From UHGV virus genome UHGV-0076424: a stretch of 24,387 nt of DNA. One strand, 5' to 3'. The DNA is from a virus. The notes below the pieces were generated by a model that was not told the origin of the DNA, did not search any database, and saw nothing but the letters and a program-made list of their open reading frames with translations. Of the stretch, positions 1-24,387 are shown one piece after another (position 1 is the first letter of the stretch; each line of letters starts with the position of its first letter). Made by a program: the position numbers and the translations under genes.

Positions 1-18
1 ATGAAGATTCCGACGTTA

Positions 19-243
19 CTAACTGAGTGTTGTATCTAATCGTGGGGGCAGGTCAAGCGCAATATCCTCGTTCTCCTGGTCGCGGCGTTTGATGTATTGC
101 TGGTTTCTTTCCCGTTCATCCAGCAGTTCCAGCACAATCGATGGTGTTACCAATTCATGGAAAAGGTCTGCGTCAAATCCCCAGTCGTCATGCATTGCCT
201 GCTCTGCCGCTTCACGCAGTGCCTGAGAGTTAATTTCGCTCAC
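19..243 (-). CDS. Hypothetical acidic 74-aa protein, distal gene of the early-left (pL) operon
   Basis: Intact ORF co-oriented with exo/bet; its start overlaps the stop of the upstream zinc-finger ORF by 4 nt. No family recognised. Confidence 0.4.
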   Translation of the reverse strand: MSEINSQALREAAEQAMHDDWGFDADLFHELVTPSIVLELLDERERNQQYIKRRDQENEDIALDLPPRLDTTLS

Positions 244-5615: not shown

Positions 5616-5684
5616 ATTTCCATTTCACGCTCTTTAACAATAAGCAATCAACTTAACAGTCAATTCAAACTAAAGGAGTCAATT

Positions 5685-6224: not shown

Positions 6225-6310
6225 CAGGTTCAAAAATGGCGAAAGTCGGTCTGCGGGAACAGAACCGACTTTCAGGTGCAAATCGTAACACACTCATTGC
6301 GGGAGGAATT

Positions 6311-7938: not shown

Positions 7939-8237
7939 CGGGCAAAGAGGCAATTATTCATTACCTGGGGACGCATAAGAGCTTCTGTGCACAGGACGTT
8001 GCCGCGGTAACAGGCGCAACCGTAACCAGCATAAATCAGGCTGCGGCTAAAATGGCGCGGGCAGGAATCCTGGTCGTTGATGGTAAGGTCTGGCGAACGG
8101 TGTATTACCGGTTCGCTACCAGAGAAGAACGGGAAGGAAAGGTGAGCACGAATCTGATTTTTAAGGAGTGTCGCCAGAGTGCCGCGATGAAACGGGTATT
8201 GAGGGTATATAAAAGAACATCAATGGGAACACAATGA
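7935..8237 (+). CDS. ren: Ren (Rex exclusion relief protein)
   Basis: Product MTGKEAIIHYLGTH...AAKMARAG...VWRTVYYRFATREEREGK matches lambda Ren as recalled; intact here. Confidence 0.9.
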   Translation: MTGKEAIIHYLGTHKSFCAQDVAAVTGATVTSINQAAAKMARAGILVVDGKVWRTVYYRFATREEREGKVSTNLIFKECRQSAAMKRVLRVYKRTSMGTQ

Positions 8238-8304
8238 TGAAACAGGTGAGTTGAGTTCAAACTGTAGTACAATTCTCTCCAGTTTGAACAGGAAAGAATA
8301 TGCT

Positions 8305-8637
8305 ATGAACCCTTATATTTATCTTGGTGGTGCAATACTTGCAGAGGTCATTGGTACAACCTTAATGAAGTTTTCAGAAGGTTTTACACGGTTATGGCCA
8401 TCTGTTGGTACAATTATTTGTTATTGTGCATCATTCTGGTTATTAGCTCAGACGCTGGCTTATATTCCTACAGGGATTGCTTATGCTATCTGGTCAGGAG
8501 TCGGTATTGTCCTGATTAGTTTACTGTCATGGGGATTTTTCGGCCAACGGCTGGACCTGCCAGCCATTATAGGCATGATGTTGATTTGTGCCGGTGTGTT
8601 GGTTATTAATTTATTGTCACGAAGCACACCACATTAA
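8305..8637 (+). CDS. emrE: EmrE small multidrug resistance efflux transporter
   Basis: 110 aa from MNPYIYLGGAILAEVIGTTLMKFSEGFTRLWPSVG..., matching E. coli EmrE; four hydrophobic helices. Confidence 0.95.
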   Translation: MNPYIYLGGAILAEVIGTTLMKFSEGFTRLWPSVGTIICYCASFWLLAQTLAYIPTGIAYAIWSGVGIVLISLLSWGFFGQRLDLPAIIGMMLICAGVLVINLLSRSTPH

Positions 8638-8665
8638 AATAATTTGTTTCTAAACGACTAAAATA

Positions 8666-8700
8666 TGGAGGCTCTTATATTTATATGAGCCTCGTTTTAT
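8666..8700 (+). terminator. Intrinsic terminator after emrE
   Basis: Stem GGAGGCTC/GAGCCTC with a 12-nt AT loop, followed by GTTTTATGCTTTTTG. Confidence 0.55.
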
Positions 8701-8891
8701 GCTTTTTGTTAATGTCTTTATTTTTTATGTATTCTTTTGTGCTTTCAAGATTATGGCGTAAGAAAATTGCAATACGATTATTGTTGTATATTCAAGATAA
8801 TGTGACCTTAATTGTCTTTTTAAATAAAAATTAAACAAAAATTATATCCCACCACTAAGGTTTATAAAAGCATACGTTAGCAGGTGTCACC

Positions 8892-10418
8892 ATGAAAAAA
8901 GCCATAGCATATATGCGATTTTCATCACCAGGTCAGATGTCTGGTGACTCATTAAACCGACAGAGAAGACTTATTGCTGAATGGTTAAAGGTAAATAGTG
9001 ATTATTATCTTGATACCATAACATATGAAGATTTAGGATTAAGTGCATTCAAAGGAAAGCATGCACAATCAGGAGCTTTTTCGGAATTTTTAGATGCTAT
9101 AGAGCATGGTTATATATTGCCAGGAACTACATTGTTAGTTGAAAGTCTGGACAGACTTTCAAGAGAAAAAGTCGGTGAAGCGATTGAACGTCTGAAATTG
9201 ATTTTGAATCACGGTATTGATGTTATAACTCTTTGCGACAATACAGTCTATAATATTGACTCTTTGAATGAGCCATATTCATTAATAAAAGCCATACTTA
9301 TAGCACAAAGGGCAAATGAAGAAAGCGAGATAAAGTCAAGTCGGGTTAAATTATCATGGAAGAAAAAACGGCAGGATGCAATGGAATCAGGTACGATTAT
9401 GACGGCGTCTTGTCCGAGATGGCTCTCCTTAGATGACAAAAGAACGGCTTTTGTTCCAGACCCCGACAGGGTGAAAACTATTGAGCTAATTTTTAAACTC
9501 AGGATGGAAAGGCGCTCATTGAATGCAATAGCCAAGTATTTAAATGATCATGCTGTAAAGAATTTCTCAGGAAAAGAAAGTGCATGGGGACCTTCTGTAA
9601 TTGAAAAATTATTAGCGAATAAAGCTCTGATAGGTATATGCGTACCTTCATATCGTGCAAGAGGGAAAGGGATAAGTGAAATCGCTGGCTATTATCCCAG
9701 AGTTATATCAGATGATTTGTTTTACGCTGTACAGGAAATTCGGTTGGCACCTTTTGGTATTAGCAATAGTAGCAAGAATCCTATGCTAATAAATCTACTT
9801 CGAACAGTTATGAAGTGTGAGGCTTGTGGTAATACCATGATTGTTCATGCGGTATCTGGAAGTTTGCATGGCTATTATGTTTGTCCGATGAGAAGATTAC
9901 ATCGATGTGACAGGCCATCAATAAAAAGAGATTTGGTTGATTATAATATCATTAATGAATTGCTTTTTAATTGTAGCAAAATTCAACCAGTTGAAAACAA
10001 GAAAGATGCTAATGAAACTTTAGAGTTAAAAATTATTGAGCTTCAGATGAAAATTAATAATTTAATCGTTGCATTGTCTGTCGCGCCTGAAGTTACCGCT
10101 ATAGCAGAGAAAATAAGACTATTAGATAAGGAATTACGAAGGGCTTCGGTATCATTGAAAACTTTGAAGAGTAAAGGTGTAAATTCATTCAGTGATTTTT
10201 ATGCTATTGACTTAACCAGTAAAAATGGACGAGAGTTATGCCGTACACTTGCCTATAAAACATTCGAAAAAATCATAATTAATACGGATAATAAAACCTG
10301 TGATATCTATTTTATGAATGGCATTGTTTTTAAACACTATCCTTTAATGAAAGTAATATCCGCCCAGCAGGCGATAAGTGCTCTCAAATATATGGTTGAT
10401 GGTGAGATTTATTTCTAA
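8892..10418 (+). CDS. ybcK: Large serine recombinase (resolvase/invertase N-domain, recombinase domain, Cys-rich region)
   Basis: 508 aa; N-terminal YMRFSSPGQ matches the serine-recombinase catalytic motif (Y-x-R-x-S-x-x-x-Q). Cys cluster CEACGN...CPMRRLHRC suggests a zinc ribbon. Gene order matches the DLP12 emrE-ybcK-ybcL-ybcM block. Low GC. Confidence 0.85.
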   Translation: MKKAIAYMRFSSPGQMSGDSLNRQRRLIAEWLKVNSDYYLDTITYEDLGLSAFKGKHAQSGAFSEFLDAIEHGYILPGTTLLVESLDRLSREKVGEAIERLKLILNHGIDVITLCDNTVYNIDSLNEPYSLIKAILIAQRANEESEIKSSRVKLSWKKKRQDAMESGTIMTASCPRWLSLDDKRTAFVPDPDRVKTIELIFKLRMERRSLNAIAKYLNDHAVKNFSGKESAWGPSVIEKLLANKALIGICVPSYRARGKGISEIAGYYPRVISDDLFYAVQEIRLAPFGISNSSKNPMLINLLRTVMKCEACGNTMIVHAVSGSLHGYYVCPMRRLHRCDRPSIKRDLVDYNIINELLFNCSKIQPVENKKDANETLELKIIELQMKINNLIVALSVAPEVTAIAEKIRLLDKELRRASVSLKTLKSKGVNSFSDFYAIDLTSKNGRELCRTLAYKTFEKIIINTDNKTCDIYFMNGIVFKHYPLMKVISAQQAISALKYMVDGEIYF

Positions 10419-10882
10419 ATAATGATCTCGGATTTTAAGTTATGCTATGGTGATAAAGTGCAAGACAGAATTAATTATCTTTGACGAAACTTAATGGGTA
10501 ATTACTTTGTTTGCTCCCACAAGCGAGTTTTGTACGGCTGTATTGGGGTAGTAAATGAGCTATACAATCTTAATCATTTGTTAGGTGAGAACTCTTGGTC
10601 GCAGATTCAAATACTGAAAATACGTGACAAATTATTATGAGCAAAATGGTGTATGTCACGTATTTTGAATGGTAGGTTAAAAAATAACACCGACTTTCGT
10701 AGGTATTACTAATAATAAAGCAGAGTTTTTAGATAGTATCAATGTGCTTTGTGTATATTGTGGCAAATAATTGGGTTGGGGGTACAATTGTGATTGCTTT
10801 TGCATAAACATTGCGCCTTTATGCATAATGAGATAAAGGAATATCAAATAAAATAACGATAGGTCATAACAAAGAGGTTTTT

Positions 10883-11434
10883 ATGAAAACACTTATCGTT
10901 TCAACTGTATTGGCATTCATAACATTTTCTGCGCAGGCTGCAGCATTTCAGGTCACTAGTAATGAAATAAAAACAGGAGAGCAACTTACAACGTCTCATG
11001 TCTTTTCTGGATTTGGGTGTGAAGGTGGTAATACATCGCCCTCATTAACCTGGTCTGGTGTTCCTGAAGGTACCAAAAGCTTTGCCGTAACTGTATATGA
11101 TCCAGATGCACCTACAGGCAGTGGTTGGTGGCATTGGACTGTTGTTAATATTCCAGCAACAATAACATATTTGCCCGTTGATGCAGGGAGACGTGATGGA
11201 ACAAAACTGCCGACTGGTGCTGTTCAAGGCCGAAATGATTTTGGCTATGCTGGGTTTGGTGGCGCATGTCCTCCTAAAGGAGATAAACCACATCATTACC
11301 AGTTTAAAGTATGGGCTCTAAAAACTGAAAAGATTCCTGTAGATTCTAACTCCAGCGGAGCGTTAGTTGGTTATATGCTTAATGCTAATAAAATCGCAAC
11401 CGCTGAGATAACACCAGTTTATGAGATAAAGTAG
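10883..11434 (+). CDS. ybcL: Periplasmic PEBP/RKIP-family protein YbcL
   Basis: 183 aa with a signal peptide (MKTLIVSTVLAFITFSAQAAA) and the PEBP motifs DPDAPTGSGWWHW and HHY; paralogous to YbhB at the window end. Confidence 0.9.
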   Translation: MKTLIVSTVLAFITFSAQAAAFQVTSNEIKTGEQLTTSHVFSGFGCEGGNTSPSLTWSGVPEGTKSFAVTVYDPDAPTGSGWWHWTVVNIPATITYLPVDAGRRDGTKLPTGAVQGRNDFGYAGFGGACPPKGDKPHHYQFKVWALKTEKIPVDSNSSGALVGYMLNANKIATAEITPVYEIK

Positions 11435-11443
11435 GGTGAGAGT

Positions 11444-12241
11444 ATGCTGGCAAGAGGTAAGACTAACTTAAAGATCGAAGAAATACGGATGCATAAACAT
11501 CATGAGATTCATAGGGTTAAGCCTCTTATGCCAGCTTTGTGTCGTATCCGTCAGGGAAAGAAAGTTATCAATTGGGAGACGCATACTTTAACTGTTGATA
11601 ATAATCAAATAATATTATTTCCTTGTGGTTATGAATTTTATATTGAGAATTATCCTGAAGCAGGGCTTTATCTTGCAGAAATGCTTTACTTACCCATTGA
11701 TTTAATTGAGAGTTTCCAAAAACTTTATACGGTAACTGATCAAATACGTAACAAAACAAGTTTCTTTTTACCTCAGAATCCTGAGTTAATATATTGTTGG
11801 GAGCAACTAAAAACATCTGTTTCCCGAGGCTTCTCAACTAAAATTCAGGAGCACTTAGCAATGGGCGTTCTACTTTCGTTAGGAGTGAATCATGTTAATC
11901 ATTTACTTTTATCATATAGTAAACAATCATTGATAAGTCGTTGTTATAACCTGCTGCTATCCGAACCCGGCACAAAATGGACAGCAAACAAGGTTGCTCG
12001 ATATCTCTACATTTCTGTTTCTACATTACATCGCCGTCTAGCAAGCGAGGGGGTAAGTTTCCAAAGTATACTGGACGATGTGAGGTTAAATAATGCGTTG
12101 TCTGCTATACAAACGACGGTAAAACCTATAAGCGAGATTGCCAGAGAAAATGGTTATAAGTGTCCTTCTCGTTTTACTGAAAGATTTCATAATCGTTTTA
12201 ATATAACACCAAGAGAGATAAGAAAAGCTTCCAGAGAGTAA
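11444..12241 (+). CDS. ybcM: AraC/XylS-family transcriptional regulator YbcM
   Basis: 265 aa; C-terminal HTH region typical of AraC family ([26 protein letters not shown]...[14 protein letters not shown]). The true start may be the internal Met at 11489. Confidence 0.85.
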
Positions 12242-12455
12242 AAGTGTTTTAAGAAGGAGCAATTCTATCGATTTTGATTTTGGGAAATCAACACGGCATA
12301 ATTATGTCACCGGAGCCTGAACAACTCCGGTGACTTCTGCGCTAAACGGGGACGTTTATGCGCACATACAATCCAAACTCTCTTCTCCCTTCACAGATGC
12401 AGAAATGCACCTGCAATTCTTTGCATCTAGCGTTTGACCTCTGCGGAGGTGAAGC

Positions 12456-12911
12456 GTGAACCTCTCACAAGACGGCATCAAATTACATCGCGGCAACTTC
12501 ACCGCTATCGGTCGGCAGATCCAGCCTTATCTGGAGGAGGGCAAATGCTTTCGCATGGTGCTTAAACCGTGGCGTGAGAAACGCAGTCTTTCCCAGAATG
12601 CACTCAGCCACATGTGGTACAGCGAAATCAGTGAATACCTCATCAGCAGGGGTAAAACGTTCGCCACTCCAGCTTGGGTAAAAGATGCTCTCAAACACAC
12701 ATATCTCGGTTATGAAACCAAAGACCTGGTTGATGTCGTAACCGGTGATATCACCACTATCCAGTCGTTACGCCATACCTCCGATCTTGATACCGGAGAG
12801 ATGTATGTCTTCCTGTGTAAGGTTGAAGCCTGGGCGGTGAATATTGGCTGCCACCTGACTATTCCGCAGAGCTGCGAGTTCCAGCTGCTCCGCGACAAGC
12901 AGGAGGCGTAA
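12456..12911 (+). CDS. ybcN: YbcN, DLP12-type nin-region protein (reported DNA base-flipping protein)
   Basis: GTG start preceded by GGAGGT; 151-aa product [27 protein letters not shown]... matches K-12 YbcN as recalled. Confidence 0.85.
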
Positions 12912-13081
12912 TGGCTACACCGCTTATTCGTGTCATGAACGGACACATCTACAGAGTATCAAATCGTCGTAAGCGTAAGCCTGAGCTGAAGCCATCCGAA
13001 ATACCAACACTGCTCGGATATACCGCTAGCCTGGTTGATAAAAAATGGTTGCGACTGGCAGCAAGGAGGAATCATGGCTGA
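12911..13081 (+). CDS. ninE: NinE
   Basis: Hand-translated 56-aa [59 protein letters not shown]; its start overlaps the ybcN stop (TAATG). Below the ORF-track length cutoff. Confidence 0.8.
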   Translation: MATPLIRVMNGHIYRVSNRRKRKPELKPSEIPTLLGYTASLVDKKWLRLAARRNHG

Positions 13082-13364
13082 TTTGAGAAAAGCAGCGCGT
13101 GGTCGGGAATGCCAGGTAAGAATCCCTGGCGTATGTAATGGCAATTCTGAAACGTCTGTACTGGCACATATCCGGCTGGCTGGATTGTGCGGTACCGGTA
13201 TCAAACCGCCAGACCTGATTGCCACCATTGCATGTTCTGCCTGCCACGACGAAATCGACCGCCGCACACATTTTGTCGATGCTGCATATGCAAAAGAATG
13301 CGCGCTGGAAGGTATGGCGAGAACACAGGTTATCTGGCTGAAAGAGGGGGTTATTAAGGCGTGA
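13074..13364 (+). CDS. ybcO: YbcO, nin-region putative nuclease
   Basis: 96 aa from [24 protein letters not shown]... preceded by AGGAGG; Cys-rich. Overlaps the ninE 3' end and the rusA start. Confidence 0.8.
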
Positions 13365-13723
13365 ATACCTACAGTATCACATTACCCTGGCCTCCGAGCA
13401 ATAATCGCTATTACCGCCATAATCGCGGGCGCACGCACGTCAGTGCAGAGGGGCAGGCATACCGCGATAACGTCGCCCGAATCATTAAAAGCGCAATGCT
13501 GGATATCGGCCTGGCTATGCCTGTGAAAATCCGCATTGAGTGCCACATGCCGGATCGCCGTCGCCGTGACCTGGATAATCTGCAAAAAGCCGCTTTTGAC
13601 GCACTCACTAAAGCAGGTTTCTGGCTGGATGATGCTCAGGTCGTTGATTACCGCGTTGTGAAGATGCCTGTTACCAAAGGTGGGAGGCTGGAACTGACCA
13701 TCACCGAAATGGGGAATGAATGA
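13361..13723 (+). CDS. rusA: RusA Holliday-junction resolvase
   Basis: 120-aa product [37 protein letters not shown]... is near-identical to E. coli RusA. Confidence 0.95.
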
Positions 13724-13860
13724 TGTTTGAGTTTAATATAGCAGAACTTCTTCGCCACCGCTGGGGGCGTCTGCGCTTATATCGTTTCCCCGGTTCTGTT
13801 TTGACCGATTACCGAATACTGAAGAATTACGCCAAAACCCTGACAGGAGCAGGAGTATGA
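13720..13860 (+). CDS. ylcG: YlcG small protein
   Basis: Hand-translated 46-aa [49 protein letters not shown] overlapping the rusA stop; matches K-12 YlcG as recalled. Confidence 0.7.
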
Positions 13861-13945
13861 AGTCAGAGATAACAATCAACTAATACTGTTTTATTGATTT
13901 TTGCTTGTAATTGGCGTTCTGGTCTGATTTTTGTGGAGTAAGTTG

Positions 13946-14329
13946 ATGCGTGATATTCAGATGGTTCTTGAGCGTTGGGGAGCGTGGGCGGCTAATAATC
14001 ATGAAGATGTGACCTGGTCGTCCATTGCCGCCGGTTTTAAGGGATTAATTCCTTCAAAAGTAAAATCTCGCCCGCAATGTTGTGACGATGACGCGATGAT
14101 CATTTGCGGGTGCATGGCCCGTCTGAAAAAGAACAACAGCGATTTGCACGATTTATTAGTAGATTATTATGTAGTCGGTATGACATTCATGTCACTGGCA
14201 GGTAAGCATTGCTGCTCTGATGGTTATATCGGGAAAAGGTTACAGAAGGCTGAGGGCATAATTGAAGGGATGTTAATGGCATTAGATATCCGGTTAGAGA
14301 TGGATATCGTTGTTAATAACTCTAATTAA
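13946..14329 (+). CDS. quuD: Late-gene antiterminator Q (QuuD, phage 82-type)
   Basis: 127 aa from the ATG at 13946 ([26 protein letters not shown]...), preceded by GGAG; matches K-12 QuuD as recalled. Cys-rich zinc-binding region present. Confidence 0.85.
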
Positions 14330-14362
14330 TACGCCAATTATTTACTAAAAGTTATTAAAAAT

Positions 14363-14502
14363 GGGGCGTTGAAACGCCCCCAAAAATAAAGGGTAATATA
14401 TAACAGAAGGTTTGTATAGTTAGAAGCAAGGTTGTGCTTCTAAAGGAAGTGGCTTGAGGGAGCCACTTATATGTTGGGGAGGCAAAGCCTCCCACAACAT
14501 AT
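14363..14502. terminator. Cluster of four stem-loops between convergent Q and nmpC (candidate tR' and nmpC terminators)
   Basis: Hairpins at 14363-14380 (GGGGCGT/ACGCCCC, T-tract on the minus strand), 14421-14442, 14450-14467 and 14470-14502 (long GC stem followed by CTTTT on the plus strand). Confidence 0.4.
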
Positions 14503-14517
14503 CTTTTAGTAATCAAA

Positions 14518-15600
14518 TTAGAACTGGTAAACCATACCTACAGCAACGATATCATCGGTAGCAACGCCAGATGCTTTCGTGAAATCGCTCTTATCAATCA
14601 GGTTGATTTTGTAGTCAACAAAAGTGGACATATTTTTGTTGAAGTAATAGGTTGCACCTACATCAACATATTCAACCAGGTCCTGATCACCCCAAACACC
14701 CAAGTCTTTTCCTTTAGAATGCAGGTAAGCAACGGATGGACGCAGGCCGAAGTCGAACTGATATTGTGCAACAGCTTCGAAGTTTTGTGCTTTGTTGGCA
14801 ATATGGTTATTACCAAAAACAGTCATGTTCTGGGTTTCAGAATAGGTGGTGGCCAGATAGATGTTGTTCGCATCATATTTCAGACCAGCTGCCCATACTT
14901 CAGCATTTTGACCAGAAGCATTCAGACCGTTGTTACCGTAGATAACCTGATTATTAGTGCGATCAGATTTAGCATAGGTTGCACCTACACCGAATCCTTC
15001 ATACTCATAAGTAGTGGAGAAACCGAAACCATCACCATTAGCTTCAGTTACGTCAGTGCGGTCATTTTTACCCTGATACTGAGCAGCAAAGTTCAGACCA
15101 TCAACCAGACCAAAGAAGTCGTTGTTACGATAAGTTGCAACACCAGTGGTGCGACCAGTCATGAACACATCTGTTTGAGTCCAAGTGTCACCACCGAATT
15201 CTGGCAGGACGTCAGTCCACGCACCGATGTCGTATGCTACACCGTAGTTACGGCCGTAATCGATGGAGCCGTAGTCACCGAATTTCAGGCCAGCGAAGGC
15301 AAGACGGGTTTTATCTTTGGAGGAACCTTGAGATTCAGCGCGGTTGCCTTTGAATTCATATTCCCACTGACCGAAACCAGTCAGTTGATCGTTGATTTGG
15401 GTTTCACCTTTGAAGCCAAGACGGGCATAAGTAGTATCACCATCATCTGCATCATTAGAGGAGAAGTAGTGCTTAGCATTAACTTTCCCGTACAGATCCA
15501 GCTTGTTACTGTCTTTATTATAAATTTCAGCTGCCTGAGCAGACATCGCCATCAGTACTGATGCAGCTACAGCAGAAATTGCCACTGTTAATTTTTTCAT
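14518..15600 (-). CDS. nmpC: Outer-membrane general porin NmpC (OmpC/OmpF/PhoE family), intact
   Basis: 360 aa with signal peptide ([23 protein letters not shown]), porin-like beta-strand pattern and C-terminal Phe (GMVYQF); uninterrupted, unlike the K-12 copy. Confidence 0.9.
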
Positions 15601-16189
15601 CGTGAGCCCTTTTTTTTGAACTATTATTAAAAAATGATGTCACTGCGCGATAAATATTCATCTAATCAATGTGATTATTTCAAGATGTAAGTTTTAGTTT
15701 CTCATTTAATTTGTGAAGTAGATCTCTATTTTTATCTGAACTTTTTCTATCGAAACCTATTTATGGCTCTTATTTGAACAAAAATAAACCTATTAGCTAA
15801 TTTATATTAATGGCTGTTATTTATGGGGGGGTCTATAATTCGATGGTTTAATTTAAATTAACTAAAAATAACGCCGGAAATTATTTATTGGTTATTTGTT
15901 GAGGTTTTCTTATGTATTTGTGGTGGTGTTTTGAACACTCGGTAGCATTCTCATAAATATCATTCAGTGGTTTACGTACGTAAAAAATTGGTTATGCTGT
16001 TAAGAGTGGTTACTTCGTCACACAGCTTAAACCCGCCGTCGAGCTGGTTTTTCCATTTTTTGAGTCTCGATATTAGCTGATAACTCAATACCTGAGTTAT
16101 TCACTGACTCCGAGTCTGTTACGTTTCTGCTTTTTTGCGATACGTTGTATTCCCTCAATTTACACCCGCTTTGTCTGCGAGGTGGGGTT

Positions 16190-16405
16190 ATGAAATCCAT
16201 GGATAAGTTAACAACGGGTGTCGCCTATGGCACCTCAGCAGGTAGTGCCGGTTACTGGTTTTTACAGCTGCTCGATAAAGTCACGCCCTCACAGTGGGCA
16301 GCAATAGGTGTGCTGGGTAGCCTGGTATTTGGCCTGCTGACGTACCTGACAAACCTTTATTTCAAGATTAAAGAAGATAAGCGCAAGGCTGCGAGAGGTG
16401 AATAA
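16190..16405 (+). CDS. essD: Class II pinholin (S21-type) with dual-start motif
   Basis: 71 aa from [26 protein letters not shown]...; Met1/Met4 dual start, two TM segments, charged C-terminus. RBS GAGGTGGGG is upstream. Confidence 0.85.
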
Positions 16406-16902
16406 TGCCTCCATCATTACGAAAAGCCGTTGCTGCTGCTATTGGTGGCGGAGCAATTGCTATAGCATCAGTGTTAATCACTGGCCCAAGTGGTAACGAT
16501 GGTCTGGAAGGTGTCAGCTACATACCATACAAAGATATTGTTGGTGTATGGACTGTATGTCACGGGCATACAGGAAAAGACATCATGCTCGGTAAAACGT
16601 ATACCAAAGCAGAATGCAAAGCCCTCCTGAATAAAGACCTTGCCACGGTCGCCAGACAAATTAACCCGTACATAAAAGTTGATATACCGGAAACAACGCG
16701 CGGCGCTCTTTACTCGTTCGTCTACAACGTGGGTGCTGGCAATTTCAGAACATCGACGCTTCTTCGCAAAATAAACCACGGTGATATCAAAGGCGCATGT
16801 GATCAGCTACGGCGCTGGACATACGCTGGCGGTAATCAATGGAAAGGACTGATGACTCGCCGTGAGATTGAGCGTGAAGTCTGTTTGTGGGGGAAACAAT
16901 GA
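16405..16902 (+). CDS. rrrD: SAR endolysin (R21-type lysozyme)
   Basis: 165 aa; Gly/Ala-rich N-terminal signal-anchor-release segment ([20 protein letters not shown]) and an E-x8-D-x5-T catalytic triad ([17 protein letters not shown]). Confidence 0.9.
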
Positions 16903-17366
16903 GCAGAGTAACCGCGATTATCTCCGCTCTGGTTATCTGCATCATCGTCTGCCTGTCATGGGCTGTTAATCATTACCGTGATAACGCCATTACCTACAAA
17001 GCCCAGCGCGACAAAAATGTCAGAGAACTGAAGCTGGCGAACGCGGCAATTACTGACATGCAGATGCGTCAGCGTGATGTTGCTGCGCTCGATGCAAAAT
17101 ACACGAAGGAGTTAGCTGATGCGAAAGCTGAAAATGATGCTCTTCTGCGGAAGCTTGATAATGGTGGCAGGGTGCTCGTCAAAGGAAAATGCCCTGTGCC
17201 ATCCTCTGCCGAAACCTCCAGCGCCTCCGGCATGGGCAATGATGCCACCGTCGAACTCTCTCCAGTTGCTGGACGAAACGTTCTCGATATCCGGGACGGA
17301 ATTATCCGCGACCAAACAGCACTGAGAACGCTTCAGGAATACATTAGGACGCAATGCCTTCGATGA
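16899..17366 (+). CDS. rzpD: Rz i-spanin
   Basis: 155 aa from [23 protein letters not shown]...; N-terminal TM then coiled-coil; ATGA overlap with the endolysin stop. C-terminal third differs from the K-12 RzpD I recall. Confidence 0.8.
17119..17325 (+). CDS. rzoD: Rz1 o-spanin lipoprotein embedded in Rz (+1 frame)
   Basis: 68-aa ORF wholly inside Rz; lipobox LIMVAGC and a proline-rich mature region ([11 protein letters not shown]). Confidence 0.7.
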
Positions 17367-17708
17367 TAGCGATAATTTTACTCATCATCCTTCACATCTG
17401 GCTCTGTAGACAGGGTGGTGATCACTTCTGGAGTAAATCCAGATTAAACATCTCATTGCTGATGCTTGATATTGAGCATCTGGCGCGCAGTAAGGGGCTG
17501 CGTTGAGATAAGAGCCAGTTCATTACAAATACCAGGATTTAGCCTCGCATTCGCGGGGCTTTTTATATCTGAATTTCACAGCGCATCTCACGCGCATATT
17601 AACGAGAGCCTTTCAGTAAGCGAGCCTGAGAAATGCCGTTATAGGTGGCGACCTCTCTCGGGCGGCTTTTCTGTGAGACAGGCTCACTTTCTAAAAGGTA
17701 AAGACGCT

Positions 17709-18233
17709 ATGAATAATCATTCAGTTATTCCAGCCTTCGACTTCCGAGAAATGGTGCAAGCCAAAAACGGAGAGGTCGTTACCACATCCAGAAAAATTGC
17801 CAAGTACTTCGGCAAGCGACACGGTGATGTTCTCAGGAAAATCGAGCAGGTTAAGGCTGATTGCTCGCGTGAGTTTAGCCAACGCAATTTTGCGTCGGCT
17901 GATTATATCGATGAGCAGGGCAAGGTTCGCCCGATGTACAGCCTGACGAAAGATGGCTGGATCATGGTTGTGATGGGGTTCACCGGGAAAGCTGCTGCGG
18001 CAATCAAGGAGAGCTATATCGCAGCATTCAACTGGATGGCAGAACAACTGAGCCGCCGCATGGCAATTGGCGAAGAAATGCAGCACCGCTACGCCATCAA
18101 AGAAACACGCTCAAAGCTGAAAGGTACGATCGGCAGTCGGTTAATGAACGAACGGAAGAAAGAGAAGCGTGTCCTGACTGTCGAGCATGAATACATCTTG
18201 CAGGTGACACAGCCTGAACTGCTGATTAATTGA
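17709..18233 (+). CDS. Rha-family phage regulatory protein (antirepressor-like)
   Basis: 174 aa from the ATG at 17709 preceded by AAGG; MNNHSVIPAFDFREMVQAKNGEVVTTSRKIAKYFGKRHGDVLRKIE resembles the Rha N-terminal domain. The track ORF extends 81 codons further upstream. Confidence 0.65.
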   Translation: MNNHSVIPAFDFREMVQAKNGEVVTTSRKIAKYFGKRHGDVLRKIEQVKADCSREFSQRNFASADYIDEQGKVRPMYSLTKDGWIMVVMGFTGKAAAAIKESYIAAFNWMAEQLSRRMAIGEEMQHRYAIKETRSKLKGTIGSRLMNERKKEKRVLTVEHEYILQVTQPELLIN

Positions 18234-18535
18234 AGATGTCATTACAAAGCCTATCTACGGGGGGCTTGATAATGGCTTATACCCTGCACGGGATAACTTA
18301 ACTGATATCCCTTTTAACGGATAAAGGTATTCAAGCCTGACACATCATGCGCTGTATCGTCGCCGTATTCCCGCATTAACCATGACCGTAGCCCGACGGG
18401 GAATTCCTTCTGCGTGAGTGTGCGGGAATAATCAAAAACGATGCACACCGGGTTATTAACGCGTCAACTGAACGCGGGGTTGCTCTTCATGTCAGCCAGT
18501 CCGGTGCAGGGGTAGAAGAAACCGGACGTTATGGT

Positions 18536-18946
18536 TTAGTGTGGAAACATTTGTGATGTGCTCTGTATGTTTTCAGTAAAGAGTAATGAATTATCAAAGG
18601 TATAGTAATATCTTTTTTGTTCGTGGATATTTGTAACCCACCGAAAAACTCCTGCTTTAGCAAGGTTTCTTCTGTATTCCTGAAATGTGATCTCTCTGGA
18701 TTTCAGCTTATTAGAGGTCGTTTCTATAAGATGCCTATCCTTTGAAAATTTGACAGACACAATGTTTTTTAGGCCCTTTAATAACACTGTATTATCATTT
18801 TTTAATACAATATGAACATTCTCTGTGGCTAAATAGTAAATGTAATGTGAGACATTGTGACGTTTTAGCTCAGAATAAAACCATTGATAGTTTAAATCGT
18901 TTCGAACTTTATCAAATATTTGTTTAAAAATGACTACCTGATCCAT
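18536..18946 (-). CDS. ybcV: YbcV (DUF1398-family protein)
   Basis: 136 aa from the internal Met ([31 protein letters not shown]...), preceded by GGAAGG; matches K-12 YbcV as recalled. Low GC. Confidence 0.8.
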
Positions 18947-19004
18947 AGATAAACCTTCCATGTGATATGAGGGGGGCGTAGTCTGCACGATTATCTAAAT
19001 TGCT

Positions 19005-19238
19005 TCAATCTGGTCTGATCTGTTTTCTGAGCAATTCAGTAATGTCACTCTTTTCTTTGTTTGCTTCAGGAGAAACTCTTTTTTCTGAGCACAGTCTCCG
19101 GCGGCAGGCTTCAATGACCCAGGCTGAGAAATTCCCGGACCCTTTTTGATCAAGAGCGATGTTAATTTGTTCAATCATTTGGTTAGGAAAGCGGATGTTG
19201 CGGGTTGTTGTTCTGCGGGTTCTGTTCTTCGTTGACAT
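19005..19238 (-). CDS. ylcI: YlcI-like small basic protein (possible ribbon-helix-helix DNA binder)
   Basis: 77 aa with a basic N-terminus (KNRTRRTTTRNIRF); position upstream of cos/nohD matches DLP12 ylcI. Symbol assignment is tentative. Confidence 0.5.
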   Translation of the reverse strand: MSTKNRTRRTTTRNIRFPNQMIEQINIALDQKGSGNFSAWVIEACRRRLCSEKRVSPEANKEKSDITELLRKQIRPD

Positions 19239-19399
19239 GAGGTTGTCCCGTATTCAGTGTCGCTGATTTGTATTGTCTGAAGTTGTTTTTACGTTAAGTT
19301 GATGCAGATCAATTAATACGATACCTGCGTCATAATTGATTATTTGACGTGGTTTGATGGCGTAGATGCACGTTGTGACATGCAGATGATAATCATTAT

Positions 19400-19626
19400 C
19401 ATTTTGTGGGTCCTTTCCGGCGATCCGACAGGTTACGGGGCGGCGACCTCGCGGGTTTTCGCTATTTATGAAAATTTTCCGGTTTAAGGCGTTTCCGTTC
19501 TTCTTCGTCGTAACTTAATGTTTTTATTTAAAATACCCCCTGAAAAGAAAGGAAACGACAGGTGCTGAAAACGAACTTTTGGGCCTTTGTCGTTTCCTTT
19601 CTCTGTTTTTGTCCGTGGAATGAACA
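19400..19626 (+). other. cos site: cosQ, cosN (12-nt cohesive end at 19438-19449) and cosB
   Basis: GGGCGGCGACCT followed by CGCGGGTTTTCGCTATTTATGAAAATTTTCCGGTTTAAGGCGTTTCCGTTCTTCTTCG, near-identical to the lambda left end; upstream TCCTTTCCGGCGATCCGACAGGTTACG matches the lambda right end. Confidence 0.85.
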
Positions 19627-20172
19627 ATGGAAGTCAACAAAAAGCAGCTGGCTGACATTTTCGGTGCGAGTATCCGTACCATTCAGAACTGGCAGGAACA
19701 GGGAATGCCCGTTCTGCGAGGCGGTGGCAAGGGTAATGAGGTGCTTTATGACTCTGCCGCCGTTATAAAATGGTATGCCGAAAGGGATGCTGAAATTGAG
19801 AACGAAAAGCTGCGCCGGGAGGTTGAAGAACTGCGGCAGGCCAGCGAGGCAGATCTCCAGCCAGGGACTATTGAGTACGAACGCCATCGACTTACGCGTG
19901 CACAGGCCGACGCACAGGAGCTGAAAAATGCCAGAGACTCCGCTGAAGTGGTGGAAACCGCATTCTGTACTTTCGTGCTGTCGCGGATCGCAGGTGAAAT
20001 TGCCAGTATTCTCGACGGGATCCCCCTGTCGGTGCAGCGGCGTTTTCCGGAACTGGAAAACCGACATGTTGATTTCCTGAAACGGGATATCATCAAAGCC
20101 ATGAACAAAGCAGCCGCGCTGGATGAACTGATACCGGGGTTGCTGAGTGAATATATCGAACAGTCAGGTTAA
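19627..20172 (+). CDS. nohD: Terminase small subunit Nu1
   Basis: 181-aa product [54 protein letters not shown]... is essentially identical to lambda Nu1. Confidence 0.95.
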
Positions 20173-22372
20173 CAGGCTGCGGCATTTTGTCCGCGCCGGG
20201 CTTCGCTCACTGTTCAGGCCGGAGCCACAGACCGCCGTTGAATGGGCGGATGCCAATTATTATCTCCCGAAAGAATCCGCATACCAGGAAGGGCGCTGGG
20301 AAACACTGCCCTTTCAGCGGGCCATCATGAATGCGATGGGCAGTGACTACGTCCGCGAGGTGAATGTGGTGAAGTCTGCCCGTGTTGGTTATTCCAAAAT
20401 GCTGCTGGGTGTTTATGCCTACTTCATAGAGCATAAGCAGCGCAACACCCTTATCTGGTTGCCGACGGATGGTGATGCCGAGAACTTTATGAAAACCCAC
20501 GTTGAGCCGACCATCCGCGATATTCCTTCGCTGCTTGCGCTGGCCCCGTGGTATGGCAAAAAGCACCGGGATAACACGCTCACCATGAAGCGTTTCACCA
20601 ATGGGCGTGGCTTCTGGTGCCTGGGCGGTAAAGCGGCAAAAAACTACCGTGAAAAGTCGGTGGATGTGGCGGGTTATGATGAACTTGCTGCCTTTGATGA
20701 GGATATTGAACAGGAAGGCTCTCCGACGTTCCTTGGCGACAAACGTATTGAAGGCTCGGTCTGGCCAAAGTCCATCCGTGGCTCCACGCCCAAAGTGAGA
20801 GGCACCTGCCAGATTGAGCGTGCAGCCAGTGAATCCCCGCATTTTATGCGTTTTCATGTTGCCTGCCCGCACTGCGGGGAGGAGCAGTACCTTAAATTTG
20901 GCGATAAAGAGACGCCGTTTGGCCTCAAATGGACGCCGGATGATCCCTCCAGCGTGTTTTATCTCTGCGAACATAATGCCTGCGTCATCCGCCAGCAGGA
21001 GCTGGACTTCACTGATGCCCGTTATATCTGCGAAAAGACCGGGATCTGGACCCGTGATGGCATTCTCTGGTTTTCGTCATCCGGTGAAGAGATTGAGCCG
21101 CCGGACAGCGTGACCTTTCACATCTGGACGGCGTACAGCCCGTTCACCACCTGGGTGCAGATTGTCAAAGACTGGATGAAAACGAAAGGGGATACGGGAA
21201 AACGTAAAACCTTCGTAAACACCACGCTCGGTGAGACGTGGGAGGCGAAAATTGGCGAACGTCCGGATGCTGAAGTGATGGCAGAGCGGAAAGAGCATTA
21301 TTCAGCGCCCGTTGCCGCACCGGCAGCGCCGTCGCGGATTGAGCTGACGCCGGGCTATTTTCAGATAACCGCCACGCCGCATCTTGCGGTTTATGATCCG
21401 ACGGTACAGTTTGAGTTCTGGTTCTCGGAAAAGCGGATTGCGGATATCAGGCAGGTTGAAACCACAGCACGCTATCTTGGCACGGCGCTGTACTGGATAG
21501 CCGCCAGTATCAATATCAAACCGGGCCATGATTATTACTTTTATATCCGCAGTGTGAACACCGTTGGCAAATCGGCATTCGTGGAGGCTGTTGGTCAGCC
21601 GAGTGATGATGCATCCGGTTATCTGGATTTTTTCAAAGGCGAGATAGGGAAAACCCATCTGGCTCAGGAGCTGTGGACGCAGATTGATAACGGTCAGCTT
21701 GCGCCTGACCTGGCTGAAATCAGGACGTCCATTACGGATGTCAGCAATGAAATCACGCAGACCGTCAATAAGAAACTGGAAAACCAGAGTGCGGCAATTC
21801 AGCAGATACAGAAGGTTCAGGTTGATACAAATAATAACCTGAACAGCATGTGGGCTGTGAAGCTGCAGCAGATGCAGGACGGACGCCTTTATATCGCGGG
21901 TATTGGTGCCGGTATTGAGAACACCCCTGACGGCATGCAGAGTCAGGTGCTGCTGGCGGCGGACAGGATTGCGATGGTTAATCCTGCGAATGGCAACACA
22001 AAACCGATGTTTGTTGGTCAGGGCGATCAGATATTCATGAACGACGTGTTCCTGAAACGCCTGACGGCCCCCACCATTACCAGCGGTGGCAGTCCTCCGG
22101 TATCGCCGGAAGGGGAGTTTCAGAAGTGGAACGGCACAGCCTGGGTGAAAGATGCAGAAGCAGAAAAACTGTTCCGGATCCGGGAGGCGGAAGAAACAAA
22201 AAACAGCCTGATGCAGGTAGCCAGTGAGCATATTTCGCCACTTCAGGATGCGGTAGATCTGGAGATTGCAACGGAGGAAGAAATATCGTTGCTGACAGCC
22301 TGGAAGAAGTATCGGGTATTGCTGAACCGTGTTGATATTCTTGAGCCAGTTTGGCCTGTGCAACCACAATAA
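20147..22372 (+). pseudogene. Chimeric deletion-scar ORF: terminase large subunit A N-terminus fused in frame to tail-tip J and tail-fibre-assembly (Tfa) C-terminal fragments
   Basis: Residues 1 to ~390 (to KEHYSAPV) match lambda gpA. The product then continues as [34 protein letters not shown]...[20 protein letters not shown] (lambda J C-terminal region) and ends [17 protein letters not shown]...LLNRVD (Tfa C-terminus). Confidence 0.8.
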
Positions 22373-22478
22373 CGGAAGGATTTACTCCTTTTATTATTGC
22401 TGACTTAAAGCCAGTTTCAGGCGTATCGTGGCTGAGACAGATAACCACCCGCTATGCGAGTGGTTATGATTTTAACCT

Positions 22479-23198
22479 TTAACCTTTAACCTTTAATTTG
22501 AGATTTTTTACTTTGCCATAAAGCGTATCTTTTAAAGAAAAAGATGGAACCCAGTTAAAACCAGTGCGCCAGGGGCGTGGACTACCGTGAAAACACACAA
22601 CTGAAACACTGTCAGGTACTTTCCCAGTTGCTGATTTTGATGCCAGGTCTGGATTGTATCCAATCATTGATTTTGTTGCTATATCGCATTTATAACTTTT
22701 AATTGCATCTGGAATAATGTCCTGCCATAAGTCTGGCTTAGTAACACTACCGATAAAACCTTGATCACCCCATTTATCTTCAGTTTTGCATTCTTGCATT
22801 ATTTGTTCAGGATTGGCAGTAAATTCCTCCCATATTTTTGTCTTTGCAGAAACGGGAATCATCATAATTGAGGAGTTAACACGGTCATGATGATTAAACT
22901 CCCTGAGCATGGTAAAATTTTTAGCTTTTGTAAAAATATCCAATTTTCCAGTAATGACAACATCTATGTCAAAATATAAAATGTCATGATTCCCGATTAC
23001 TGGATGGTTTGGGTTAAATAACTCCATTTTTGACCACCAACCAGGCCAATCAAATAACAAAGGTGCAGTATTCACACCATCAATACTTCCAGCATCAGTC
23101 AAGCAGATTGAGGGCATTGAACCAAATTGTTTATGAAGCCATTGTGCATGTTTCGGCGTAAAATCCTTGCCGCAGCGTAGTACAGAAACGATCAACAT
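22479..23198 (-). CDS. Hypothetical 239-aa b-region protein (possible DxD-motif nucleotide-sugar transferase or phosphoesterase-like)
   Basis: Intact low-GC ORF between the tail-gene scar and attR; contains GNHD and YFDIDVV (DxD-like) motifs. No family confidently recognised. Confidence 0.5.
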   Translation of the reverse strand: MLIVSVLRCGKDFTPKHAQWLHKQFGSMPSICLTDAGSIDGVNTAPLLFDWPGWWSKMELFNPNHPVIGNHDILYFDIDVVITGKLDIFTKAKNFTMLREFNHHDRVNSSIMMIPVSAKTKIWEEFTANPEQIMQECKTEDKWGDQGFIGSVTKPDLWQDIIPDAIKSYKCDIATKSMIGYNPDLASKSATGKVPDSVSVVCFHGSPRPWRTGFNWVPSFSLKDTLYGKVKNLKLKVKG

Positions 23199-23471
23199 AG
23201 AAAATCTTTCCTAAACTTTCAGATCTAATTTATACATTAAATAGTTTGAGGTTATGAATACTATCTGAAGTATACAAGTTATTATGTGAAACAACCAGAA
23301 GAGTGACTACAATCCTAAGAAAACAAATTGTGGTAGATGTTGGCGCGAGAATACACAGGCGGAACGATTACCTGTGATGTTGGTGGGTCGAAGTTGTATG
23401 AAAAATTTCCTGCTGGGGATAAATAAAGTCGCGGTATGTCATGTGCGGGAAGGAATAATCATTGGTTTTAT

Positions 23472-23506
23472 GCCGCAGCACGTTGTATGCAATAACGTGC
23501 TGCGGC
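23472..23506. promoter_or_regulatory. Perfect 13-bp inverted repeat, candidate sib-like retroregulator
   Basis: GCCGCAGCACGTT, 9-nt loop, AACGTGCTGCGGC; about 250 bp on the b-region side of the att core, where lambda carries sib. No U-tract follows on either strand. Confidence 0.4.
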
Positions 23507-23612
23507 TGGCTGGTGAACTTCCGATAGTGCGAGTATTGAATGATTTCCAGACGTTACCGATTTTACGACAAAAAATTAGCGCAAGAAGACAAAAATCACC
23601 TTGCGCTAATGC

Positions 23613-23775
23613 TCTGTTACAGGTCACTAATACCATCTAAGTAGTTGATTCATAGTGACTGGATATGTTGTGTTTTGTCGCGTTTTGCAGTCTATTTTTT
23701 AGACTGAATCAATTATAAGTCGTTGATATTAATTGTTTTTACCGTTTCACATTCAACTTTTTTATACTAACTTGA
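23613..23775 (+). other. attR (phage P arm, core, bacterial B' arm)
   Basis: TCTGTTACAGGTCACTAATACCATCTAAGTAGTTGATTCATAGTGACTG matches the start of the lambda attP P arm with arm-type Int sites. Core CTTTTTTATACTAA (23757-23770) is 14/15 to lambda, followed by CTTGAGCGAAACG, the lambda attB B' arm. Confidence 0.8.
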
Positions 23776-23860
23776 GCGAAACGGGAAGGTAAAAAGACAA
23801 AAAGTTGTTTTTAATACCTTTAAGTGATACCAGATGGCATTGCGCCATCTGGCAGAGTGA

Positions 23861-24337
23861 TTAACTAAACATCGCAGTAATCGAGGCGCTTGCCAGAGAG
23901 TGGAAATGAACGTTAAACCCGACCATCGCGCCGCTGGCACCTTCATCGACATCAATACGTTCTATATCCAGCGCGTGAACGGTAAAAATGTAGCGATGAG
24001 TTTCGCCTTTCGGCGGTGCTGCGCCATCGTACCCGGTTTTACCAAAGTCGGTACGCGTCTGCAAAACGCCGTCTGGCATTGCTACCAGACCAGAGCCAAA
24101 CCCTTGCGGTAATACGCGGGTATCAGCGGGTAAGTTAACAACTACCCAGTGCCACCAGCCGGAGCCGGTTGGCGCATCCGGGTCGTAGCAGGTGACAACA
24201 AAACTTTTCGTTCCCGCAGGAACATCATCCCACGCCAGATGCGGTGAAATATTATCGCCATCGTAACCCATGCCGTTAAAGACATGACGATGCGGCAATT
24301 TATCGCCATCGCGCAGATCGTTACTGATGAGTTTCAT
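23861..24337 (-). CDS. ybhB: Host PEBP-family protein YbhB
   Basis: 158-aa product MKLISNDLRDGDKLPHRHVFNGMGYDGDNISPHLAWDDVPAGTKSF... matches E. coli YbhB, the gene flanking att-lambda on the bio side. Confidence 0.9.
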   Translation of the reverse strand: MKLISNDLRDGDKLPHRHVFNGMGYDGDNISPHLAWDDVPAGTKSFVVTCYDPDAPTGSGWWHWVVVNLPADTRVLPQGFGSGLVAMPDGVLQTRTDFGKTGYDGAAPPKGETHRYIFTVHALDIERIDVDEGASGAMVGFNVHFHSLASASITAMFS

Positions 24338-24387
24338 GAACCCTCCTTTCTTGTTTGCAGAAAGTGTAGCCAGAAACCCTCACGCGG

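Follow-up and report, generated by a model that had tools for sequence, protein, structure and literature searches.

The window, by which we mean the whole stretch of DNA analysed (24,387 nucleotides), carries a lambda-type prophage in which the packaging site cos and the small terminase gene Nu1 are followed by an open reading frame of 741 codons (20147-22372, plus strand). This frame is composed of pieces of three genes, with gpA residues 1-389, J-like residues 390-651 and the C-terminus of Tfa at residues 652-741. The coordinates of the features are given in Table 1.

Table 1. Features located in the window, from left to right.
Feature	Position	Strand	Remarks
IS3-family element end (ISSen4-like)	1..55		also the contig end; adjoins truncated ea22 at lambda-equivalent position 30208
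Complete lambda-type cos	19381..19618	+	equivalent to lambda 48446-182
cos subsites cosQ, cosN 22-mer and I2	cosQ 19408-19414; cosN 22-mer 19428-19449; I2 19455-19487	+	strings exactly as in lambda
cos R sequences	R3 19490-19505; R2 19542-19557; R1 19591-19606	+	strings exactly as in lambda
Nu1 small terminase subunit, intact, nohD-type	19627..20172	+	181 aa; Pfam Phage_Nu1, 1-164 of 164 profile positions, E = 9e-101
gpA remnant, codons 1-389	20147..21313	+	lambda 711-1877, 97.7%; ATPase domain and first quarter of the nuclease domain
Junction 1, A (lambda 1877) to J (lambda 17636)	21311..21313	+	in frame; 2-bp microhomology (TT)
Internal J (tail tip) fragment, residues 390-651	21312..22100	+	equivalent to lambda J codons 711-946
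Junction 2, J (lambda 18340) to tfa (lambda 22271)	22098..22103	+	in frame
Tfa (tail fibre assembly) C-terminal remnant, residues 652-741	22101..22372	+	Pfam Caudo_TAP at 647-741, profile 35-131 of 131
b-region moron, outside the fusion	22479..23198	-	239 aa; PHROG 1962 "glycosyltransferase", E = 4e-76
attR core ACTTTTTTATACTAA	23756..23770	+	one mismatch vs the lambda core; then bacterial B' arm and ybhB; right end of the prophage

Contents and limits of the prophage

By BLAST against lambda (NC_001416), the homology begins at window position 56. Positions 1-22381 correspond with 99.98% identity to positions 603-22982 of an annotated locus (L001), where an IS transposase coding sequence occupies 1-628. 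In the near-identical copy of Escherichia coli SW070917, the IS stands in place of lambda 28356-30207, a stretch comprising the N-terminus of int, xis, ea8.5 and part of ea22. This leaves int with its C-terminal 181 codons (lambda 27812-28355) and the prophage without xis. The window starts at the same IS/ea22 junction. Since its contig ends in the IS and the left end of the prophage lies outside the window, the loss of int and xis is shown for the SW070917 copy only. On the right, positions 23561-23774 match the P arm of lambda attP (27529-27742, BLAST), and ybhB-bioA are annotated after attR in the contig of the window as well as in the SW070917 locus, where the attL core adjoins ybhC. The element is integrated in the chromosome and bounded by att sites, attR being seen in the window and attL in SW070917. 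From attL to attR it measures about 26.3 kb (about 25.5 kb without IS1), which is about 53% of lambda.

The genes follow the lambdoid order of recombination, immunity, replication, nin, Q, lysis, cos and terminase, as deduced from the PGAP annotation of the 99.98%-identical locus, Pfam on the contig and BLAST to lambda and DLP12. Homologues of intact length are annotated (PGAP, Pfam) for the repressor, cro, O, P, exo, bet, gam, Q, holin, endolysin and Rz, in agreement with the first-pass annotation, which had considered immunity, replication, recombination, lysis and the packaging site as retained; no N-type antiterminator was recognised to the left of the repressor. In the replication and repressor modules, which appear intact, the match to viable phages is 97%. 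The middle section (emrE, ybcK-ybcO, rusA, quuD) is 99.2% identical to DLP12 of K-12, and the section with the nmpC-type porin and essD-rrrD is 92.2% identical to it. Early, replication and lysis modules of such intact appearance are unusual for an old remnant and show that the decay is recent.

The virion genes are what is missing. Nu1, the chimera, the 239-aa moron and one small ORF are all that lies from cos to attR, and neither the contig of the window nor the SW070917 locus has an annotated portal, capsid, tail tube or tape-measure gene in any part of the element. The DNA equivalent to lambda 1878-17635 and 18341-22270 is absent (BLAST), amounting to 15.76 + 3.93 = 19.7 kb, close to the roughly 20 kb of head and tail genes that had been estimated from the letters. 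As the gene to the right of the fusion is the moron, no structural gene follows the fusion; the moron had no match in Pfam or PADLOC, and an 88-aa ORF on the same side had none in Pfam.

The cos region was compared with lambda using the subsite definitions, the roles and the 48446-182 fragment given in PMC4856287. The 238-bp fragment contains cosQ, cosN, I2, R3, R2 and R1, whose spacing is that of lambda up to lambda 137; one base pair is missing between R2 and R1, and a single substitution, at lambda 73, flanks the I1/IHF site. For R1 to R3 the matching was done with strings that we take to be the lambda R sequences. Position 19438 corresponds to the base with which the left cohesive end of lambda begins, and the flanks align with lambda at 95.0% (19076-19437 with 48141-48502) and 97.7% (19438-21313 with 1-1877; BLAST vs NC_001416). 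Nu1, annotated as nohD in SW070917, is identical to lambda Nu1 in 180 of 181 residues. cosN, cosB and Nu1 had been described as lambda-identical. The cos fragment is near-identical: every subsite tested (cosQ, the cosN 22-mer, I2 and R1-R3) is as in lambda, and the 12 differences of the fragment fall in the spacers. Nu1 carries one amino-acid change. A packaging site matched to a helper with lambda-type cos is therefore predicted.

In the fusion, gpA residues 2-389 are identical to lambda at 386 of 388 positions, and Pfam detects GpA_ATPase at 47-285 (E = 1e-50), so the N-terminal region and the ATPase domain are present. GpA_nuclease is found at 322-389 for profile positions 2-72 of 294 only, the endonuclease domain being interrupted and the C-terminal region lost where the frame switches to J at residue 390. 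The J fragment is devoid of the N-terminal 710 codons and of the receptor-binding C-terminus. It is a non-lambda allele of J with an indel, matching lambda J at 91.3% in 21312-21677 (17636-18002) and at 74.4% in 21847-22100 (18087-18340; BLAST), and it contains Pfam Ig_J_second at 394-496 and a truncated Phage_Tail_Tip at 550-647 (profile 1-100 of 139). The last piece, 22101-22337, matches lambda tfa 22271-22507 at 92.4% (BLAST). It was also observed that the Tfa remnant matches the Rfam candidate family IS009 (RF02111) at 22146-22344 with 205 bits. BLAST, Pfam and codon arithmetic agree with the initial description of a terminase frame that turns at about residue 390 into J and afterwards into the Tfa C-terminus. 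In the PGAP annotation of the 99.98%-identical locus the fusion appears as two pseudogene fragments, and scans for promoters and terminators around it gave background levels.

Taking these features together, the fusion region is in all likelihood the late-operon stump of a defective lambdoid prophage, a remnant of the same kind as DLP12 of K-12, and the element very probably is an ordinary decaying cryptic prophage of lambda type at att-lambda of E. coli, between ybhC and ybhB-bioA.

Distribution and origin of the junctions

The window comes from a short-read, metagenome-type contig (NODE_142), and an E. coli genome contains several copies of A, J and tfa segments (at a median of 4 places), so an assembler might join repeated prophage segments and produce both junctions artificially. 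A search for the same junctions in other genomes decides against it. Of 5426 complete E. coli genomes, SW070917 alone had a contiguous match to a 120-bp probe over junction 1. This independent, chromosome-level assembly has both junctions in identical form and is the sole complete genome that has them. The exact 741-aa protein is called on 4 contigs, and the flanks are colinear on either side. The artefact explanation is effectively refuted and the junctions are real, as well as rare. Among phage records, none covers the fusion query beyond the A part (62% of it).

Alignment to lambda A, J and tfa placed the four breakpoints (Table 1), and codon arithmetic indicates that the native frames were kept: A ends after codon 389 and J is entered at codon 711 position 2, then J is left at codon 946 position 1 and Tfa is entered at codon 100 position 2. 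The repeat search found no long direct repeats able to drive the deletions. Illegitimate deletions at the level of microhomology very probably removed two stretches, one running from mid-A to mid-J and the other from the end of J across lom and stf into tfa, although we infer the order of these deletions.

Two deletions had been supposed for the whole rearrangement. The J breakpoint of junction 2 and its flanking SNPs (GGTGGCAGTCC) are, however, common to the Qin remnant of strain EcPF16, and the breakpoint at lambda 18340 with the flanking SNPs is also present in the Qin remnant of KFu022. In EcPF16, J 18340 is joined out of frame to tfa 22100, and the window differs by a 167-bp deletion between GGTAT and GGTTAT. 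Since EcPF16 has the same J breakpoint and SNPs, and since a single join would have occurred without microhomology, a one-step origin of junction 2 was rejected; a two-step origin is favoured on the same grounds. Judging from these alignments, a minimum of three events, together with exchange between remnants, is more likely than two deletions.

Related rearrangements were seen in other strains. ZYB62 has an in-frame A-J fusion, annotated as a normal CDS, with breakpoints at lambda 1890 and 17440, 13 bp and 196 bp from those of the window. It was discarded as the ancestor of junction 1, considering that its A part is 99.9% lambda-like vs 97.7% here and that it belongs to another prophage, at the ompN/uspF locus; by this comparison it is treated as an independent deletion, and there may be a local deletion hotspot near junction 1. 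Window 22101-24387 is colinear with the att-lambda prophage of strain AJ1 (98.8%). Att-lambda relatives with the same b region carry other deletions, with a nohD-to-I junction in AJ1 and an ea-region-to-J junction in GDSC2227PM.

The open frame and the mobility of the element

The preservation of one long frame had been put forward as notable, though perhaps fortuitous. The second part of this judgement holds better than the first, since the chance of keeping frame over two junctions is 1/9, and in-frame fusions exist elsewhere: besides ZYB62, aaaD-tfaD of DLP12 in K-12 is one uninterrupted ORF of 247 codons, A(1-103)-Tfa, adjoining cos-nohD. The remnants of EcPF16 and 20AR0300 are out of frame. 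The open frame would be a by-product, each junction having happened to join native frames, and the A'-J'-'Tfa chimera a non-functional pseudogene. It is presumably unable to cut cos because the nuclease domain is truncated, and to dock on the portal because the C-terminus is gone. Having no more than internal or terminal pieces of the tail proteins, it would neither form a tail tip nor act as a fibre chaperone.

Considering that the 741-codon frame is uninterrupted and that an intact Nu1 immediately precedes it in the late operon, the chimera could be expressed if Q acts. It was then conceivable that it had been domesticated: expressed together with Nu1, it would act as a dominant-negative decoy against lambda-type phages that superinfect the cell, poisoning their terminase. 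Kept at 386/388 identity, the N-terminus of gpA and its ATPase domain are taken by us to include the Nu1-binding residues, and in-frame A fusions recur in K-12 and ZYB62. This conservation of the A part, however, predates the deletion and is silent on later selection, the frame is expected by chance at the rate given above, other remnants are out of frame and the fusion is limited to one lineage. Late genes are moreover silent in a repressed prophage. On the decoy reading, the Q of the invader would trans-activate the resident late promoter, and the chimera would join terminase assemblies as a nuclease-dead, portal-blind subunit and block the packaging of lambda-type invaders, a route that we regard as highly improbable. 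PADLOC found no match in five ORFs, the fusion among them (the library covers defence systems, not satellite genes), and on this basis the idea that the chimera or its neighbours form a defence system was rejected. The decoy function as a whole is extremely doubtful; if it were true, the recurrent in-frame gpA N-terminal fusions, as in DLP12 of K-12 and in ZYB62, would be non-random.

The reading of the chimera as a pseudogene leaves the question of whether the element moves. It had been proposed to be either a decaying cryptic prophage or an element packaged in trans by a helper. In the latter case it would be a helper-dependent mobilisable element, comparable to cosmids, lambda-dgal or cos-type satellites, that kept cos and shed the virion genes. 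The lambda identity of every cos subsite tested, the intact Nu1 and the intact-looking replication and repressor modules (97% match to viable phages) are in favour of it. There are also precedents: in O157 Sakai, defective lambdoid prophages are packaged by co-resident prophages with near-identical cos (PMC2669165), and lambda helpers package cosmid multimers (PMC4856287). Against it, site-specific excision is not expected in SW070917 because xis is gone and int is truncated. The size is also unfavourable, the 25.5-26.3 kb of the element being too small for a lambda head and a dimer (105-109% of lambda) lying at or above the upper limit. The minimum for lambda packaging is about 78% of lambda length. 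SW070917 has one cos-Nu1 place only and no second one of lambda type, the fusion is in no phage record, the lysis genes have been kept and no satellite hallmarks were noticed. Finally, packaging in situ from cos towards bio has no downstream cos at which to terminate (PMC4856287). Packaging by a helper is therefore very unlikely, and of the two proposals it is the decaying cryptic prophage that stands. With xis and half of int taken out by the IS, the element appears locked in the SW070917 chromosome, where it would persist as a passively inherited remnant.

The element documents a further state in the decay of lambdoid prophages, and beyond bookkeeping it matters little. It does illustrate that chance gives rise to long, open, chimeric ORFs in prophage stumps, for which annotation as pseudogenes is appropriate, and that junction patches can be common to different cryptic prophages, in this case Qin-type and att-lambda-type remnants. 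Its realistic role may be that of a recombination reservoir for incoming lambda-type phages and a carrier of morons (emrE, the nmpC-type porin and the gene of the PHROG "glycosyltransferase" family). Remnants or prophages with cos-Nu1 occur in at least 3915 of the 5426 complete E. coli genomes, and the locus could be used as a natural substrate to study the recombination of incoming lambda-type phages with resident cos-Nu1 remnants.

Comparison with known systems

Cos-type satellites (Gram-negative PICIs) have a helper-type cos and no virion genes and are packaged via the helper terminase; they possess their own integrase and excision control, helper-triggered derepression and a small genome, often with packaging-redirection genes. 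The present element has the helper-type cos, but it differs in its full lambdoid early and lysis set, in its length of about 26 kb with holin, endolysin and Rz, where a satellite would have a small genome with interference or redirection genes and no lysis genes, and in its broken int and missing xis, as seen in SW070917 (the left end of the prophage is beyond the window). With cosmids it shares the helper-type cos and the absence of virion genes, and their packaging depends on the helper terminase (PMC4856287). The prophages of O157 Sakai (Sp4, Sp7 and others) are likewise lambdoid, with head, tail or terminase defects and a cos near-identical to that of another prophage. Excision, replication and packaging by co-resident prophages were shown experimentally there (PMC2669165), whereas in SW070917 the excision genes are missing and there is no cognate resident helper.

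The Qin remnants (nohA; the variant of EcPF16 and KFu022) have the same fragment order of TerL', J' and 'Tfa and the identical J breakpoint at lambda 18340 with its SNPs. They differ in the location of the prophage at ydfJ, the small terminase of DUF1441 type, the fragments being out of frame and the entry into Tfa at lambda 22100 instead of 22271. In DLP12, too, cos is of lambda type and the Nu1 homologue is intact; they are followed by an in-frame fusion of the gpA N-terminus with the Tfa C-terminus, all head and tail genes being deleted, and the cos/nu1 region of DLP12 recombines with lambda and is functional there (PMC3945230). DLP12 lies at argU and the present element at att-lambda; in K-12, A 1-103 passes directly to Tfa, while in the window A 1-389 is followed by J 711-946 and Tfa from 100 to the end; and exo-bet-gam, the repressor, cro, O and P, lost in DLP12 of K-12, are kept here.

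Location and gene content of the prophage

The window corresponds to bases 1-24387 of contig NODE_142 (ENA assembly ERZ1742034) and shares 99.98% identity with a locus on the E. coli SW070917 chromosome; the two differ in structure solely by an IS1 just after the fusion ORF in SW070917. This IS1, missing from the window, lies directly after the fusion stop codon with a 9-bp target duplication (window 22373-22381); ybcK is frameshifted in SW070917 and intact in the window (8892-10418, 508 aa). Considering these two differences, the copies are close relatives at slightly different decay stages. The locus is a lambdoid prophage sitting at the lambda attachment site, and in SW070917 the attL core adjoins ybhC.

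By annotation and Pfam, the gene order was lambdoid: ea22', exo, bet, gam, kil and two genes of unknown function, followed by an S24 repressor, cro, a YdaT-domain gene, O, P and ren. A block of the type found in DLP12, the K-12 cryptic prophage at argU, came next (emrE, ybcK-ybcO, rusA, quuD, an nmpC-type porin, essD, rrrD, Rz), and then Rha, DUF1398 and ylcI before cos and Nu1. The two genes after kil (3793-4511, minus strand) encode products of 146 aa (coiled-coil region, hydrophobic C-terminal tail) and 89 aa, and gave nothing significant in PADLOC or Pfam. The flanks of this region recur at 97% in the related viable phages PhiR5_1 and PhiR47_2, which have different cargo within the match (annotated HipA/HipD and GevT/GevA), pointing to a possible variable hotspot for morons or defence genes. 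Inspection of the pL operon from kil to the repressor (window 3241-4591) revealed no gene for an N-type antiterminator; in strain AJ1, N is annotated in a related prophage at att-lambda. A 239-aa ORF of the b region (22479-23198, minus strand) matched PHROG 1962 ('glycosyltransferase', moron category, E = 4e-76), had no Pfam domain and was conserved at att-lambda in only 4/5426 complete genomes.

Anatomy of the fusion ORF and the cos region

Alignment to lambda (NC_001416), Pfam and annotation confirmed the proposal of the first-pass annotation that an in-frame A-J-Tfa fusion stands in place of the head and tail genes. The breakpoints were placed at lambda 1877/17636 (junction 1, A to J) and 18340/22271 (junction 2, J to tfa), which leaves the prophage without 15.76 kb (1878-17635) and 3.93 kb (18341-22270) of lambda-equivalent DNA; elsewhere in it the annotation contains no head-like or tail-like gene. 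By codon arithmetic on BLAST coordinates, native frames are kept at both joins. The J segment is a diverged allele, with 91% and 74% nucleotide identity to lambda and an indel. Only the ATPase domain was whole in Pfam; all other pieces were truncated, with GpA_nuclease covering 72/294 profile positions, Phage_Tail_Tip 100/139, and Caudo_TAP beginning at profile position 35. In SW070917, PGAP splits the fusion into two fragments annotated as pseudogenes. The candidate small-RNA family 'IS009' (Rfam RF02111) also gave a full-length match (22146-22344, plus strand, 205 bits, gathering score 117), wholly inside the Tfa C-terminal coding remnant; what this family models may simply be the 3' portion of prophage tfa genes, which is conserved and multicopy.

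Features of the cos-fusion-att region (positions in the window, residues in the fusion); R3, R2 and R1 were placed by the lambda R strings
Feature	Position	Remarks
cosQ (GGGTCCT)	19408	lambda-identical
cosN, 22 bp	19428	lambda-identical
I2	19455	lambda-identical
R3	19490	lambda-identical
R2	19542	lambda-identical
R1	19591	lambda-identical
Nu1	19627-20172	180/181 identity to lambda Nu1; full Pfam profile
Fusion ORF	20147-22372	741 codons; three parts
gpA part	residues 1-389	386/388 identity to lambda
Internal J segment	residues 390-651	lambda J codons 711-946
Tfa C-terminus	residues 652-741	lambda codon 100 onward
attP P arm and core, one mismatch (ACTTTTTTATACTAA)	23561-23770	then bacterial B' arm, ybhB, bioA

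Lambda base 1 falls at window 19438; the lambda right end occupies 19076-19437 (95%) and lambda 1-1877 occupies 19438-21313 (97.7%). The equivalent of the cos fragment functional in cosmid work, lambda 48446-182 (PMC4856287), had 12 differences, none of them within the tested subsites. The earlier description of cos and Nu1 as lambda-identical thus holds for every tested subsite and is slightly overstated for the whole cos fragment and for Nu1. At 80% coverage or more, the cos-Nu1 segment was present in 3915/5426 complete E. coli genomes.

Origin and reading frame of the junctions

At junction 1 (GCGCCCGTT/GCCGCACC) the A and J parents share a 2-bp microhomology, a length typical of illegitimate recombination. 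A direct J-to-tfa join at the window position would show none. In the Qin remnants of EcPF16 and KFu022 the J fragment ends at lambda 18340, the exact nucleotide of junction 2, and the SNPs just upstream (GGTGGCAGTCC; lambda, GGCGGCAATCC) are common to these remnants and the window. In the remnants the tfa part begins at lambda position 22100 and is out of frame; the window equals their arrangement minus 167 bp, between GGTAT and GGTTAT. Taking these data into account, the most economical history would be an older J-Tfa junction, spread between cryptic prophages by recombination, and then a short deletion mediated by microhomology. Instead of the two deletions first proposed, the junctions would require at least three events, in an order that we infer. 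In another prophage, that of ZYB62 (L007 12713-15352), an independent in-frame gpA(1-393)-J(646-end) fusion has breakpoints close to those at window 21311-21313, at a distance of 13 bp on the A side and 196 bp on the J side; chance or a deletion hotspot at this place may explain the closeness.

The preserved frame had been considered notable, a view that we do not maintain: two random joins both keep frame with a probability of 1/9. In K-12 MG1655, aaaD-tfaD of DLP12 forms one uninterrupted 247-codon ORF beside cos-nohD (L004 18355-19098), with gpA 1-103 fused to Tfa; aaaD (pseudogene) and tfaD (CDS) are annotated separately there, the tfaD start lying inside the gpA-derived part. PGAP calls the ZYB62 fusion an ordinary, intact CDS, named 'terminase gpA endonuclease subunit'; the remnants of EcPF16 and 20AR0300 have lost the frame. 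The in-frame share in this small, unsystematic sample appears compatible with one third.

When 120-bp probes across each junction were searched against 5426 complete E. coli genomes, requiring a contiguous match, both matched only in SW070917 (1/5426). The exact 741-aa protein occurs on four contigs, and no sequenced phage carries the fusion. These junctions are a rare, lineage-restricted variant with no sign of function or selection, and it is most improbable that the chimera acts as a dominant-negative terminase decoy. Among att-lambda prophages with the same b region, AJ1 has nohD joined to tail assembly gene I and retains J, an stf fragment and tfa, and in GDSC2227PM all DNA between the ea region and J is gone; such differences are the expected pattern of independent, lineage-specific decay.

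Mobility and relation to DLP12

Having kept cos, the element was also proposed to be packaged in trans, another phage supplying the virions. Defective O157 prophages are packaged in this way via near-identical cos sites (PMC2669165), and lambda helpers package cosmid multimers (PMC4856287). The evidence from SW070917 is against it: an IS3-family element takes the place of lambda-equivalent 28356-30207, a replacement that removes xis along with half of int, on its N-terminal side. The window starts exactly at the IS/ea22 junction of SW070917, where the contig also ends. From attL to attR there are ~26.3 kb (~25.5 kb without IS1), roughly half the lambda genome; a ~26-kb monomer is below the lambda packaging minimum and a dimer at or above the maximum. 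The single lambda-type cos-Nu1 place in SW070917 implies no cognate resident helper, and in situ packaging from cos would head towards bio, with no termination without a downstream cosQ-cosN. Homologous recombination (marker rescue) at cos-Nu1-A' would be a more realistic interaction with incoming phages, and recombination with an incoming phage at the cos-nu1 region has been shown for DLP12 (PMC3945230).

The alternative reading, a decaying cryptic prophage, was upheld by the loss of the head and tail genes and, in SW070917, of xis and half of int; the element is probably immobile. The DLP12-type block lies here at att-lambda, whereas that of DLP12 lies at argU, and a quuD-porin-essD-rrrD-nohD module is likewise at att-lambda in AJ1; either phage-prophage recombination or a shared ancestor may account for this. 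The element is a recently decayed, DLP12-like cryptic lambdoid prophage; its block has 99.2% identity to K-12 DLP12 over 8024-14559 (emrE, ybcK-ybcO, rusA, quuD) and 92.2% over 14576-17143 (nmpC-type porin, essD-rrrD).
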